This document shows positions 31,601 to 40,600 of a DNA stretch of 64,000 nt, in pieces (position 1 is the stretch's first letter; the number at the start of each line of letters is the position of its first letter). The stretch is from a plasmid, in the NCBI RefSeq assembly GCF_057098645.1, contig NZ_JBXSPU010000003.1. The stretch is one strand, 5' to 3'. The position numbers are program-made.

Positions 31601-34600
31601 TCACCCCTACGCCTACGTGGCTGATACCACTTATCCATAGTATAATGAATAATAGTAGTTAAAGTAGTTTAGGAGGGGGATATTAGGGAGGTTTTTACTT
31701 TAAATAAAAATTAACAAGGTCTATAATTTATAGTAGTTAAAGTGGTTAAAGAGAGGTGGGAGGATTTTTTATTTCTCCCTGAATCAAAATAAAGAAAGAA
31801 GGAATCGAATTGTTAAAACAAAAGGAACTAATGGCAAGGGTTAAGGAACTTGTCCAGTCAGATGAACGAATATCTGCTTGTATGATGTATGGCTCTTTTA
31901 CAAAAGGAGAGGGAGATCAATACTCTGATATAGAATATTACGTTTTTCTAAAAGATGATACAATTTCCACCTTTGATTCAGCAAAATGGCTAAATGAAGT
32001 CGCTTCCTACACTTTACTCTATCAAAATGAGTACGGTACGGAAGTAGTAATTTTTGAAAATCTAATACGTGGTGAATTTCATTTCCTTTCCGAAAACGAA
32101 ATGAATATTATTCCTTCATTCAAAGAATCAGGCTACATTCCTGACACAAAAGCAATGTTTATTTATGATGAAACAGGACAACTAGAATTGTATTTATCAG
32201 AGTTGGAAGGTCCGGGACCAAATAGACTTACAGAAGAAAACGTAAATTTTTTATTGAATAATTTTTCCAACCTATGGTTAATGGGGATTAATGTTCTTAA
32301 AAGAGGGGAAAATGCACGTTCACTGGAACTTTTATCTCAATTACAAAAAAATATACTACAACTCATTCGAATTGCGGAAGAAAATGCCGATAATTGGTTT
32401 AATATGACAAAGAATCTTGAAAAAGAAATTAGACCTGAAAACTATGAAAAGTTTAAAAAGACTACTGCCCGATTAAATGAATTAGAACTATATGAAGCCT
32501 ATAAGAACTCTTTGCTTCTCGTTATGGAACTTCGAAATCTCGTTGAAAAACAGTATCAATTAACCATTAGCGATGATTTTTTAGGCAAACTGTTTAATTA
32601 TATGAACGAATAAATAAAAAGCCTGTATCTCAAGTGATAACTAAGATACAGGCTTTAATTGTTATTTACTTTAAATACATGTTCTCAAAGTGAAAGTATT
32701 GATTTTAATGGATTTTTAATAGTTTACTCTTGATAATATTGCGGGCCTGGACGAGAAGACGGTACGCGACATTTTCAACGCCCGCGCCGAATTCCTGGGG
32801 CGCTGGCACCGCTTCGAGACGCCCCGCATTCTCGGCATTGACGAGTTGTACCTGAACAAGCGCTACCGCTGCATCCTGACCAACATCGAGGAGAGGACCC
32901 TGCTCGACCTGCTGGCCACCCGCCGTCAGGACGTGATGACCAACTACCTGATGAAGATGAAAGACCGGCAGAAGGTCAAGATCGTCAGCATGGACATGTG
33001 GAATCCCTACCGAGCAGCGGTCAAGGCGGTGCTGCCACAGGCCCGCATCGTGGTCGATAAGTTCCATGTGGTGCGCATGGCCAACGATGCCCTGGAGAAG
33101 GTGCGCAAGGGCCTCAGGAAGGAGCTGATGCCCTCCCAGAGCCGAACCCTCAAGGGTGACCGGAAAATCCTGCTGAAACGCGCTCACGAAGTCTCAAACC
33201 GGGAACGCCTCATCATGGAGACCTGGACCGGCGCATTCCCACAACTGCTGGCCGCCTACGAGCACAAGGAACGTTTCTACGGCATCTGGGACGCTACCAC
33301 ACGGCCCCAGGCAGAAGCCGCCCTGGACGAGTGGATAGCCACCATCCCGAAGGGCCAGAAGGAAGTCTGGAGCGATCTGGTCAGGGCTGTAGGCAACTGG
33401 CGCGAAGAGATCATGACCTACTTCGAGACGGACATGCCCGTCACCAACGCTTACACGGAGTCCATCAACCGACTGGCCAAGGACAAGAACCGTGAAGGAC
33501 GTGGTTACTCCTTCGAGGTGATGCGGGCACGAATGCTCTACACCACGAAGCACAAGAAGAAGGCCCCGACCGCGAAGGTCTCTCCGTTCTACAAGAAAAC
33601 CATCGGTTACGGACTGCCGGACTTCGCAGAGGAACTCAACTACGGGGTCGATCTATCAACCATCTGATAATGGTATCAGGTTGGTGGGGTAAAGGTGCCC
33701 CATCAACCATTAAATCCGTATACCCATTATTTTTACAGAAGTGCGAGCTGCGTTTTCAAAAGGTTCTCATAGCTATTTTTTTACTTTTACAGGCAAAAAG
33801 CAGAATGATGGATTCGCGTTGACTGGTAATGTTCAGGATCACGTTTTATTGGGGCATAGCTATCATCTTTCGGGAAAAGTGAGAAAGATCCACTACTTTG
33901 ACTCAGTGCCCTACGCATTACTGACTGTGTTTAAATTAACAGCATAGCCTGGTGTCTAGTGACCGGAACTCCCAAATACAGGCCGTTTTTACATTAGCCA
34001 CCGGCTTTCTGCACTGTCGTGCCGACTCACTCACGTCAAATCTGTTGCTCACGCATCGGGTTTTTACCCGGTTTTACACTCCGAAAATAAGCCGATTTAT
34101 TTTAAATTCAACACCCGTTATTAACTAATCTTTTAAATTAAAAATGATAATCTTATTAATTATATTTTTTAATTTTTTGTCTCTTCTTAACATATAGGTT
34201 AAGGAGATTTTGTTAAAACGGAGTGATATATGCAAAATGATCTTGGACTTGGGTTCATCCGCAAGTCAGCAAGAACGTCAGCAAAAATTATTTCCCGAAA
34301 AGTTACTTTTCCGCTCGATGACTTGGATAATGCAAAGCTAACGCTAACTGGCCTACAGTGTCATCCATCCTGCCGTTTTCCATTTTACCAGCTGTCTATG
34401 CTTATCCATAACCAACTCGCTGAGCACGGCGTCATTTCTGCCGATGAAAACGCACCGTTCACTGTATCCATAAGCATTCACGAGTGGCTGAGTCGTGCCA
34501 GAGTGGCATTTATTGATTATCACGGTCTTCGTAATAGCGATAAGACGGTCATGATCACACGCGCTCATCTGGAAGAATTGCTTACTTACTTGTCTACGAC

Positions 34601-37600: not shown

Positions 37601-40600
37601 CAACCTATTAGCTTTTTGTTCAAGGTTGTTATCCTGGTATCAGATAAACCCTTCAAAAAGGACTGGTGCTATGTCTGCTGTTGAATCTGATTCCCTGCCA
37701 ATGGGTGCCCCTGGGAGTTCTCTGGTTGCTTATATGCCTCATACTGGCCTCCTTATTAACGACGATAACTTCCTGCCCGAAATGCGGGAAGAGCTCGATG
37801 TCATTAACAGGCAGGTCGAATCATATAACGATGAGCTTAGCTTACTGAGGTCCATGTCCGCTCAGTTCCTGAAATGCGGGAATCAGAAGCTCTATTCATA
37901 CCTCTCCGGATACAATCATCTCATTTCAGAAGCGGATGCCAGCTACGCAGAAAACGCGCTGCGTTCAGAATACTGGAAGAGGGTCATGGCCCTGACCGAT
38001 GTACTGTCTGTGATGTCTGACGAAAAGAAGAAAGAATGGGATAAGCAGTTTACTGCTGACCGTTACCACCTTCCTCCTCAGGAGATCCCTGATTTTACAC
38101 TCGATGCTGTTGTTACCACGGTTGTCGCGTTGCTCAATGACCGGCATCAGTTCATTAAAGATCGTGTCTATGCCGTCTTTCAGTCATTAAGCCGTCAACA
38201 CAAAACCAATAAAGCATTTGGCTTCTCTACTCGCATGATCACCTCCGGCGTATGTGAAGGCGTGAAAGACAAATGGGTAAAACTGAAGGTTGAGTTTAAA
38301 GAATCCGGCCTCATGCCACTTTCGGAGTTGCGGGTGATCTGTTCTTATTTCCGGGGCGAAACAGTTAAACCGGTCTATGACACGAAAAAAATGGTTGAGA
38401 ATATGGTTGGTCATGTTGGATTCAGAAACTGGATCAGCCTGGATGGCAACAGTATTCGTTTTCGGGTCTACAAAAACGGATCGATGCACATTGATGTGCA
38501 TCCTGATATCGCCGAACGGCTTAACAACATTCTTGCTGCCATCGTCCCTCTGGCTCTGCCTGCTGAACGCGTGGCCCATACCAAAGCGACGTTGCAGGAG
38601 TTCCCGGCACTGAAACGCTGCATCGATTTTCATTCACGGATGCAGCTTGCAGAGCTGGATTTTACCCAGAATGAAAAGGAATGGTCCAGCTGGACATCGC
38701 TCGGCTATGCCGGTGAGAACGCTGATAAAACGCGGCAGGTGAACGCGGATGTTCTGCGATTTCTCGGTGCCCGAGTGACAAGCTACCATGTGACGTTTGA
38801 TTATGACCCGACCGAAGTGATGCGCTTCATCGGACATATGGGCGCCATGCCTGATATTAAATCCCACCAGTTTTATCCGTCGTCGGCGCGACTCAGTGAA
38901 TACGTCGCATCCATTATTGCGGCCGGGGAGGGGGAACGGCTGCTGGAGCCCAATATTGGGCACGGGGATTTGCTTCAATGTTTCCCGAAAAGTGTCAACG
39001 TAACCGGCATCGAACTGGATACACTGAATTGTCTGGTCTCCCGGGCTAAAGGTTACGAGACCACGGAAGCCGATTTTCTGGCCTGGTCGGCGGCGAATCA
39101 GATTCAGAAATTTGATTGCGTGGTGATGAACCCTCCTTTTGCTGACAACCGGGCTAAGCTGCATCTGCTGGCCGCTGCGTCTCATCTGGTTCCCGGCGGG
39201 CGTTTAGCTGCCGTCCTGCCTCTGTCCCTTCAGGGGATCGATAACCTGCTGGGCGAGGGGTTCAGGACCGAGTGGATGGATACCTTCGATAATGAGTTTG
39301 ACAACACTGCCGTCTCCGTCCGCGTTCTGTATGCAGAACGCTTTTAACTGAAGGAAAGACTATGTCCAAAAGTTCGCCTGTCTTGCCTGAGGACCGTGAT
39401 GATATTGAGTTTGTGATGGATGATTTCCAGCGGAGCCTGGGGAAAAGTAAACCAGTACGTGAAGTGCAATTTCTGGGAGAGTCACAGCAAAGTGAAGAAT
39501 CTGCGAACTCTGCCGATTCGCCCTGGTTTGAAAGCTAATCTATTCTGATGGCGCCGTGCTGATTTAAAATGACTCCCCGGCAGTGAGCGGGGAGTTATTA
39601 CAACTTTTACCTGTACTGAACAACAGTTCCGGCTAAGGTACAAACGGGTATGAAGAGCTGGACATCAACATGATGCCAGTAAGGCAGCGGCACCCTGTAC
39701 CCTCCCTTACGATGATGGACAATCATCGCCTGTTGCTGACATTTCACCTCATTTAATCGTCCTAATTTCTGCTTTTCCTATTTCTTCTCAAGAGAAAAGT
39801 TACTTTTCTTCCACCGTAATCAGCCCTGTTGAAGTTGCCTTAACTTTCGTTTTGTTCTGACCCGACAACATTGCTATCACGGCAACATTTAAAAGTTTTA
39901 TGCCGTGAAATACCCCGGCTAACCAGCAAGCCCAGGTGAAAAGATTTCGTAAAATAGGGGCAAATACATCCCGGGAGTATCACATGCGTAAAATTCTGAC
40001 AGGCTGTATCATTGCCACGGCCATAGCTTCAGTTTATCCGGCGGCGGCTCAGATTTTCAGCTATTCGTATACTGACACCAATCAGCTGGCAAAGACGCTT
40101 AAGCCTGCCACGCAGAGCTACCTTAATCCGGCAAGCACAATGACCCTGAATCTGATCTCCGGCCTTGACCGATACGAACGAGTGAGTGTGACCAGGGACA
40201 GTGACAAAAAGGTCATGTATTCCGCAGTGACAGGAAAGATAAGCGTCGCAGATCGCATTGTTGCCGCAGACGGCACGGAATATTACGGAAAGGACTTGGC
40301 GTTACCCGCACTCGGTGAAGGGGCCTTCACCGTCATCAACGATACTCTGGATCTCCAGCAGGCTGTCGTCAGCTCTTCAACGTATCATTTCACAATCGAC
40401 ACTACAGCGCCAAAGTATACCAGCATCTACCCGAGCCAGAACGCAGGCTATGAAATGGTCCTGAGTGGCCCAGTTTGGGGGCTTGGGCGCGGAGGATCTG
40501 GCCAGTTTTCCATCTTTGCTGATGGAGTTGATGATGCGAATGGCATAGACAAGATCCGTCTGGTCATCAAGCGCGGAAATGGCACAGTCGTGTCCGACAA

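Follow-up and report, generated by a model that had tools for sequence, protein, structure and literature searches.

A 64,000-nucleotide stretch of plasmid DNA (contig NZ_JBXSPU010000003.1 of assembly GCF_057098645.1; hereafter the window) carries at positions 34230–39538 genes for an orphan Dam-family DNA methyltransferase, a ParB-like protein and a second protein with methyltransferase motifs. A preliminary description of the sequence had taken this combination for a possible establishment or anti-restriction module of a conjugative element, which raises the question of whether these genes, together with a second ParB-like gene nearby, act as one system. Our analysis suggests that they do not, and that the block combines two kinds of neighbouring function, namely two independent orphan N6-adenine methyltransferases and two DNA-binding proteins of the ParB/KorB/Noc type, one of which (ParB2) would be a KorB-like regulator that binds a short palindrome. 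The chance that this reading is correct is, in our view, about even.

Identity of the locus

The window derives from an IncHI1 resistance plasmid, and the block, which corresponds to R0037–R0044 of plasmid R27, belongs to the conserved backbone of IncHI plasmids. A Megablast search with positions 34230–39538 returned 281 plasmid records (219 at ≥99% identity), nearly all of them conjugative, the best-annotated match being an IncHI1 plasmid that carries tet(X4) and encodes a MOBH relaxase and an F-type mating system. The five proteins encoded in this segment have the same RefSeq accessions as R27 R0040–R0044 (R27 positions 43171–48479), and the DNA of the block is 99.9% identical to that of R27. 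At lower stringency the block is carried by 1,395 plasmid records; in IncHI2 the nucleotide identity is about 69% and the gene order is the same.

In R27 the genes follow one another contiguously as RepHI1A, ParB1 (R0037), R0038, R0039, R0040, Dam (R0041, on the opposite strand), ParB2 (R0042), the DUF4942 methylase (R0043), R0044 and an Ig-like gene. All the open reading frames (ORFs) described previously are in place in the window. The array tables of R27 label R0041 as 'DNA adenine methylase', R0042 as 'partition protein' and R0043 as 'DNA restriction methylase'; the cluster was already annotated in R27 (2000), and its mix of orphan methylases with DNA-binding proteins is an ordinary one. 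All eight genes follow in the same order in relatives with methylases of 52% and 46% identity, and also in a distant element (L023) whose ParB2, methylase and Dam are 26%, 33% and 40% identical, respectively. The layout, earlier judged not to be a textbook one, is unusual only in this preservation of an eight-gene order down to 26–40% protein identity.

The ParB-like proteins

ParB2 (36250–37407, plus strand; 385 aa) is made up of a ParB/Noc/KorB-type N-domain, a helix-turn-helix (HTH) domain and C-terminal helices, and has no ParA partner nearby. ParB1 (27844–28920, plus strand; 358 aa) is a ParB/KorB-like paralogue without the N-terminal extension of ParB2. The two proteins are 34% identical over 194 aa (E 5e-23), and ParB1 adjoins the RepHI1A gene (26434–27309), which bears out the earlier mention of a second ParB-like paralogue beside a replicon. 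ParB1 matches PHROG 1033 (9e-24), and the motifs GFNxRE, RQGHCR and DGN are common to both proteins.

A Pfam search with ParB2 gave a weak HTH_ParB match alone (5e-4), and a profile built from 16 members of the ParB2 family retrieved the structures of Noc, Spo0J and ParB from the PDB at 1e-8. The structural model of ParB2 has a pLDDT of 76.6, and in Foldseek it superposes best on ParB, Noc and KorB, at 1e-6 to 1e-4 and across some 200 columns that cover the N-domain and the HTH. The family is represented by 1,176 sequences at E ≤1e-10. Its three conserved boxes have diverged from the canonical ones and yet are invariant within the family (box I, GFNxRE; box II, RQGHCR in place of the canonical GERRxR; box III, DGNxxxxLxPVA), and box II of ParB2 keeps one arginine of the canonical GERRxR patch that binds CTP. 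The ParB-like proteins of the block are KorB/Noc-type DNA binders with a CTPase-like fold and an HTH, and nothing points to nuclease activity. The term 'ParB-like nuclease-domain' that had been applied to ParB2 is a Pfam name only, whereas the profile and fold searches return the N-domain of ParB, Noc and KorB together with an HTH.

That ParB2 is the ParB of the partition system was considered and rejected. No ParA or ParM gene is present within the block, and a separate parA/parB module is located at 9912–12169 with its own arrays of 52–54-bp repeats. Upstream of parA, very large arrays of 52–54-bp direct repeats (GGGGTTAAATGCCACGGTACC...) occupy positions 12364–14966. They presumably constitute a partition or incompatibility locus, and the ORFs called inside them are probably spurious.

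ParB2 was also compared with HerB (YfjB) of plasmid F (PMC13370423), likewise an orphan ParB-like protein of a plasmid, linked to conjugation, in which a CTPase-type fold is combined with an HTH. However, HerB is a protein of 652 aa with four domains, is encoded in the leading region and is zygotically induced, whereas ParB2 has 385 aa, is encoded far from oriT and shows constitutively high expression. The HerB family has been defined by a coverage of its four domains of 80% or more (PMC13370423), and ParB2 falls outside it; the hhalign match is confined to the ParB and HTH parts (E 0.004, probability 8%), and ParB2 was therefore rejected as an orthologue of HerB.

A palindrome dispersed over the IncHI backbone

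The 15-bp palindrome that had been proposed as a possible binding site of the ParB-like proteins, GAAAAGTTACTTTTC, is present as a perfect copy at 34297–34311 and at 39794–39808, and belongs to a plasmid-wide element with the consensus SAAAAGTNACTTTTS. The first copy lies 67 nt inside R0040 (the IncHI2 counterpart at +68) and the second precedes the Ig-like gene R0045 by 176 nt. A degenerate copy (AAAAAGTACCTTTTT) at 36153–36167, located 83–96 nt upstream of the ParB2 start and found with identical sequence at −92 in IncHI2, is a candidate autoregulatory operator. Perfect sites of the window lie at 8951, 34297, 39794, 53902 and 56836 and near-perfect ones at 1527, 19997, 22306, 25360, 46755, 60723 and 62000; with up to three mismatches there are 34 strand-matches, compared with 3.2 ± 2.0 expected. 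The complete R27 sequence holds 26 perfect cores (AAAAGTNACTTTT; 0.03 expected); when one mismatch is allowed the count is 50 (1.1 expected), and the full 15-mer is perfect at 12 sites.

IncHI1, IncHI2 and two further lineages (L006 and L009) have about 0.3 sites per kb, L020 has 0.66, L018 (an IncHI-like element of Photorhabdus) 0.10 and L023 0.13, while the control loci, about 103 kb taken from plasmids, prophages and phages, contain not a single site. Fully intergenic sites make up 26 of 43, against a share of intergenic DNA of 14–28%, a comparison that is approximate given the incomplete gene tables of PLSDB. The palindrome is found upstream of the ParB2 gene in all six lineages examined (IncHI1 at −96, IncHI2 at −92, L006 at −131, L020 at −120 and −297, L018 at −14 and L009 at −370). 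Outside IncHI1 and IncHI2, a multiple alignment of these upstream regions contained too much noise to be used as a footprint. Further sites are located in the trhA promoter region and in the mobI/trhR intergenic region. Because L020 and L018 possess the palindrome and ParB2 and no methylases, the element does not depend on the methylases. A description of this palindrome was not found in the searchable literature, and the R27 transcriptome paper describes no cis element.

Short operators scattered over a plasmid backbone are known from KorB of the IncP-1 plasmid RK2, and the pattern seen here is similar. KorB is a CTP-dependent global repressor of the ParB family with 12 dispersed palindromic operators, as compared with about 26–50 candidate sites here. 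In both cases the protein is plasmid-encoded and the palindrome is short, dispersed on the backbone and mostly intergenic, including a site upstream of the protein's own gene. Both proteins share the ParB N-domain and HTH fold, and the KorB co-complex 8qa9 has the best TM-score among the top fold matches of ParB2. In contrast to KorB, ParB2 has no adjacent ParA/IncC or KorA partner gene, and its box II reads GHCR and not GERR. Taken together, the distribution of the sites and the fold comparison suggest that ParB2 binds the palindrome, its candidate site, and acts as an autoregulated, KorB-like global regulator.

In the published R27 arrays R0042 is among the most highly expressed genes, and the R27 transcriptome study singled it out as induced under all conjugation-promoting conditions. 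ParB2 is strongly expressed and co-induced with the transfer genes. It would most likely bind SAAAAGTNACTTTTS across the backbone and upstream of its own gene, and might be a KorB-like global regulator or an organiser of the DNA, and neither a nuclease nor an obligate partner of the methylase.

R27 has another methylase locus. At R27 140.4–142.6 kb a thermonuclease-family gene, which has a palindrome at its 5′ end, is divergent from a gene for a DNA cytosine methyltransferase. This divergent pair is probably R0153 and R0154, which the R27 array tables list as 'partition protein' and 'cytosine methylase' and which are both co-induced with R0042.

Two orphan adenine methyltransferases

R0041 (35066–35890, minus strand; 274 aa) is an orphan N6-adenine DNA methyltransferase of the Dam family. 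It scores 230.5 bits against TIGR00571 (cut-off 114.85) and 1.1e-53 against the Pfam family MethyltransfD12 (PF02086), and its alignment with E. coli Dam and DpnM spans the whole protein (E ~1e-40). The S-adenosylmethionine-binding FxGxG motif and the catalytic DPPY motif are both present (EPFIGGG at residue 35, with FIGGG at 37, and DPPY at 185). A GYNGLCRYN...VP block, which we take to be the GATC-contacting part of the E. coli Dam structure, is identical in R0041 and E. coli Dam, although R0041 remains far under the equivalog cut-off of E. coli Dam (171 vs 441 bits). Judged from its sequence, the specificity of R0041 is likely to be GATC.

R0043 (37671–39347, plus strand) has 558 aa and combines an N-terminal DUF4942-containing module of about 400 aa with a C-terminal N6-adenine methyltransferase domain of the TaqI/BseCI type. 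The longest ORF (37593–39347) would encode 584 aa, and the RefSeq start at 37671 gives 558 residues plus a stop codon, hence the 559 aa of the preliminary description. Motifs I and IV, which that description had recognized, are present (EPNIGHG at residue 426 and NPPF at residue 487), and motifs I (EPxxGxG), II, III and IV (NPPF) of the C-terminal Rossmann domain are invariant over 39 homologues. The catalytic motifs are thus intact on alignment in both methylases. The N-terminal part of about 430 aa, by contrast, is not unassigned as had been thought; the domain search that had been proposed for it identified DUF4942 (PF13708) at residues 96–290 (5e-23; also found in 11 of 11 aligned members), and the protein matches PHROG 6263 over its full length (8e-115). 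Its N-terminal 400 or so residues have no sequence relative in the PDB. Other Pfam matches of R0043 are weak ones of the MTS, N6_Mtase and Eco57I type, and PF01555 was not found. The catalytic domain extends to the last residue, so that the approximately 400 aa outside it are all N-terminal. Because the catalytic domain ends the protein and the C-terminal target-recognition domain usual in TaqI-like (gamma-class) enzymes is absent, the N-terminal DUF4942 module presumably recognizes the target.

The DUF4942 methylases form a large family (166 phage records and many AFDB entries, including a 'recombination methylase' of plasmid Rts1). No reported specificity was found for any member in the searchable literature, where 'DUF4942' is mentioned only in the annotation tables of four papers. 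Homologues of R0043 at 33–36% identity stand alone among anti-restriction or early phage genes, and stand-alone homologues are found in SSU5, phiPSA1, U7, lambdoid prophages and an IncFII-like plasmid; in this last plasmid the distant homologue lies beside Antirestrict, RadC and PemK genes, and in phages such homologues occupy early or nin regions. The orphan methyltransferases of phages and prophages (PHROG 6263; SSU5 gp095, phiPSA1 gp22) have the same full-length architecture at 31–34% identity (E 1e-49 to 1e-60) and, like R0043, no accompanying nuclease; unlike R0043, they have no ParB neighbours.

No nuclease family was detectable in the genes flanking either methylase, although highly diverged nucleases could escape such a search, and PADLOC returned generic methyltransferase matches only and no defence system. 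The earlier statement that the Dam-family enzyme has no adjacent endonuclease is therefore borne out. The product of the neighbouring gene R0040 (34230–35051, plus strand; 273 aa), which is convergent with dam across a 14-bp gap, has a possible C-terminal winged helix. It has no match in Pfam, NCBIfam, PHROGs or PADLOC, and no Asp, Glu, Lys or His is invariant across five homologues; R0040 was therefore rejected as a restriction endonuclease.

It is possible that R0041 and R0043 keep the plasmid DNA methylated in whatever host it resides, and that this methylation guards the plasmid, on entry into and during residence in new hosts, from restriction systems with overlapping sites. R0041 may have a second role. 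A cluster of five GATC sites within 90 bp (27465–27556) is located next to the RepHI1A iterons (27361–27445) and is a candidate Dam-methylated part of the origin, and a second GATC cluster is present at the RepHI1B origin (45081–45373), with three GATC sites spaced 11 bp apart. These clusters suggest that the origins are Dam-sensitive and that Dam also serves replication. The replication origin oriR of P1 depends on methylation, and Dam-dependent origins of the P1 type resemble both IncHI1 origins in having GATC clusters beside iterons. R0041 could keep the GATC clusters of both origins methylated independently of the host. It is from motifs, gene contexts and site distributions of this kind that we infer the methylation targets, the anti-restriction and replication roles and the identity of the palindrome-binding protein.

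In the same region, downstream of repHI1A, about 12 iteron-like repeats of 43–44 bp (core CAAATGCTTTT) occupy 25419–25960, and the last three units contain the palindrome-like sequence CAAAAGGCACTTTTC. The palindrome-like matches at 25834–25920 lie inside this 43-bp RepHI1A iteron array and were rejected as independent sites.

ParB2 and the methylase as separable neighbours

ParB2 and R0043 are encoded by separate genes 264 nt apart, with a hairpin and T-run resembling an intrinsic terminator (37488–37512, plus strand) between them. In the published R27 arrays at 25 °C, R0042 gave 6132 units and R0043 gave 217, a difference of about 28-fold, and the two genes respond to temperature in opposite directions. 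In L018 and L020 the ParB2 homologues have tra genes on one side and the Ig-like gene on the other, and their neighbourhood contains neither a Dam nor a DUF4942 gene. From the terminator, the difference in expression and the occurrence of homologues of each protein without the other, we conclude that ParB2 and the methylase are separable neighbours and not one machine.

Several observations do not fit this picture easily or leave it exposed. The conservation of the eight-gene order in L023 hints at a functional link which our model does not explain. Some palindrome sites are located in convergent intergenic regions or inside genes, and the protein that binds the palindrome could be ParB1, HtdA, TrhR/TrhY or a further conserved IncHI protein and not ParB2. 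CTP-dependent clamping by ParB2 is uncertain in view of the GHCR in its box II. In IncHI hosts, which already have Dam, protection by R0041 would be redundant, and when one dam gene was deleted from another plasmid that has two, no effect on protection was seen (PMC11602122). Our literature search also found neither methylome nor binding data for the proteins of the block, nor any IncHI methylome.

Alternative explanations

The two proteins might nevertheless cooperate. ParB2 could load on the plasmid, perhaps at the palindromes, and recruit or activate the adjacent DUF4942 methylase, a two-polypeptide version of the ParB–methyltransferase fusions or of the ParB-activated thymidine dioxygenases of phages. 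Fusion enzymes of this kind carry a methyltransferase domain of the N6_N4 (beta-class) type. ParB2, methylase and small ORF are adjacent in IncHI1, IncHI2, L006 and L023, even at 26–33% identity, and in L009 ParB2 and the methylase are adjacent and the small ORF after the methylase is absent. ParB–methyltransferase fusions are common in phages and plasmids (PMC12704722; PMC7736820), and in phages N6_N4 methyltransferase ranks with the most frequent fusion partners of ParB (PMC12704722). M.EcoGIX and M.BceJIII, plasmid fusions that act on single-stranded DNA (PMC7736820), resemble the present case in that a conjugative plasmid combines an m6A methyltransferase with a ParB-type module, an association for which an anti-restriction role has been proposed. 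However, they are single polypeptides, whereas here there are two with a terminator between their genes, the R0043 domain is TaqI-like (MTS/N6_Mtase) with DUF4942 and without PF01555, and the block is not near oriT. The phage thymidine dioxygenases provide a demonstrated precedent for a ParB-like protein that is encoded beside a DNA-modifying enzyme and activates it (PMC13229309), although that ParB has no obvious DNA-binding domain and its enzyme is a dioxygenase, while ParB2 has an HTH. Given the terminator, the unequal expression with its opposite temperature responses, the equally diverged methylases that stand alone in phages, prophages and the IncFII-like plasmid, and the palindrome-bearing ParB2 homologues without a methylase, we consider such guided methylation unlikely. 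A broader form of it, in which ParB2 loaded at the 26–50 or so palindromes both regulates transcription and licenses the DUF4942 methyltransferase for plasmid-specific methylation, would explain the conserved gene order through this partnership, and seems to us improbable. Nor do we give much credit to the idea of a cryptic type II restriction–modification system, in which R0040 would be a GATC-type endonuclease paired with R0041. The convergent R0040/dam arrangement with its narrow gap is a layout typical of many type II systems and R0040 has no assigned function, but the absence of database matches, the lack of any invariant catalytic-type residue and the winged-helix-like C-terminal part make this proposal scarcely credible.

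Two further possibilities concern where in the life of the plasmid the block would act. As a leading-region module for establishment or anti-defence, it would be switched on soon after transfer, from the strand that enters the recipient. Leading regions of other plasmids are enriched in orphan methylases and ParB-like proteins (PMC11541004; PMC13370423), and R0037–R0042 are induced in the htdA mutant of R27, in which conjugation is derepressed; however, 106 of 170 non-tra genes respond in this mutant, so that the induction lacks specificity. In R27, where the position of oriT and the polarity of transfer were deduced from mobH and mobI, the MOBH relaxase gene (mobH) and mobI lie at 104–108 kb and the block at 43–48 kb, about 60 kb away (about 120 kb the other way around). 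Hok, DUF905 and DUF957 genes, which are typical of leading regions, cluster at R27 83–98 kb. With DUF3085 they belong to a same-strand run of small genes (R27 83–97 kb) that is similar to the leading regions known from F-like plasmids and would fit the IncHI1 leading region better than the block does. In addition, Dam is encoded on the strand opposite to the other genes of the block, ParB2 is already highly expressed in plasmid-carrying cells, and its match to HerB/YfjB of F is limited to the generic ParB and HTH parts. The leading-region reading is weakly supported at best, and we rate it as unlikely. What survives of the anti-restriction or establishment proposal of the preliminary description is that the methylases are orphans with intact motifs, have distant homologues among anti-restriction and early phage genes and belong to a block that is induced when conjugation is derepressed; what counts against it is the distance of the block from oriT, the nature of the ParBs as DNA binders and not nucleases, and the separability of ParB2 and the methylase. 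Alternatively, the block could be an accessory of RepHI1A for replicon support or partition, in which Dam methylates the origin GATC cluster as at P1 oriR and the ParBs bind a centromere or organise the plasmid. The block of R27 begins 535 bp from repHI1A, GATC sites are clustered beside the iterons of both origins, and R0042 is annotated as a partition protein. Yet neither ParA nor ParM adjoins the block and R27 keeps its ParA/ParB and ParM modules apart from it, with repeat arrays that belong to them, the palindromes are dispersed unlike a clustered plasmid centromere, in L018 and L020 ParB2 is found beside tra and Ig-like genes and not beside the replicon, and the Dam of the enterobacterial host already serves the origin. 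This possibility is about as unlikely as guided methylation. We therefore prefer the reading of two independent orphan methylases with neighbouring KorB/Noc-type DNA-binding proteins.

Significance

IncHI plasmids carry multidrug resistance in typhoid as well as mcr-1 and tet(X4), and regulation of their backbone has so far been attributed to HtdA, TrhR/TrhY and H-NS/Hha only. If ParB2 does act as a KorB-like regulator through the palindrome, a central and druggable layer of control would be added to a clinically important plasmid family, and the rank of R0042 among the top-expressed genes of R27 would be accounted for. Methyltransferases with DUF4942 are found widely in phages, prophages, pathogenicity islands and large plasmids, and a single specificity would annotate thousands of genes. 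The dispersed palindrome, with its probable link to ParB2, and the DUF4942 methylase family are the two subjects which merit following.

Other features of the block

An Rfam scan of positions 25000–41000 found no RNA family. R0038 (28938–29138, plus strand) is a small ORF of 66 aa which keeps its position in four of five lineages with the full array (including IncHI2, L019); its counterpart in L009 comes after the next gene. R0039 (29135–29701, plus strand), a zinc-finger-like gene of 235 aa in R27, is truncated in the window by a 4.1-kb insertion (29629–33725) that carries lnu(G), fragments of an ISL3-family transposase and part of a metal-efflux-like gene, and is flanked by an 8-bp target duplication. 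R27 lacks this element, which is not part of the ancestral block; because it splits the block, the ParB1 gene had appeared distant from the cluster in the preliminary description. R0044 (39362–39538, plus strand), an ORF of 58 aa, follows the methylase gene in IncHI1, IncHI2, L006 and L023.

A 23-nt A/T-rich motif (TTTTTTAATTTTTTNTCNCTTCT) is present at 36015–36037 (plus strand) upstream of R0042 and again at 34165–34187 upstream of R0040 (two matches, 0.03 expected). A weaker copy is located at 39765–39802 upstream of the Ig-like gene R0045, and R0040, R0042 and R0045 are all raised in the htdA mutant. Large Ig-like genes (DUF4165/Big_3; 39936–42440 and 47318–49702 in the window) follow ParB2, or ParB2 and the methylase, in the IncHI-like lineages, L009 and L023 being the only exceptions, and the adjacency of ParB2 and an Ig-like gene persists even in lineages without methylases.

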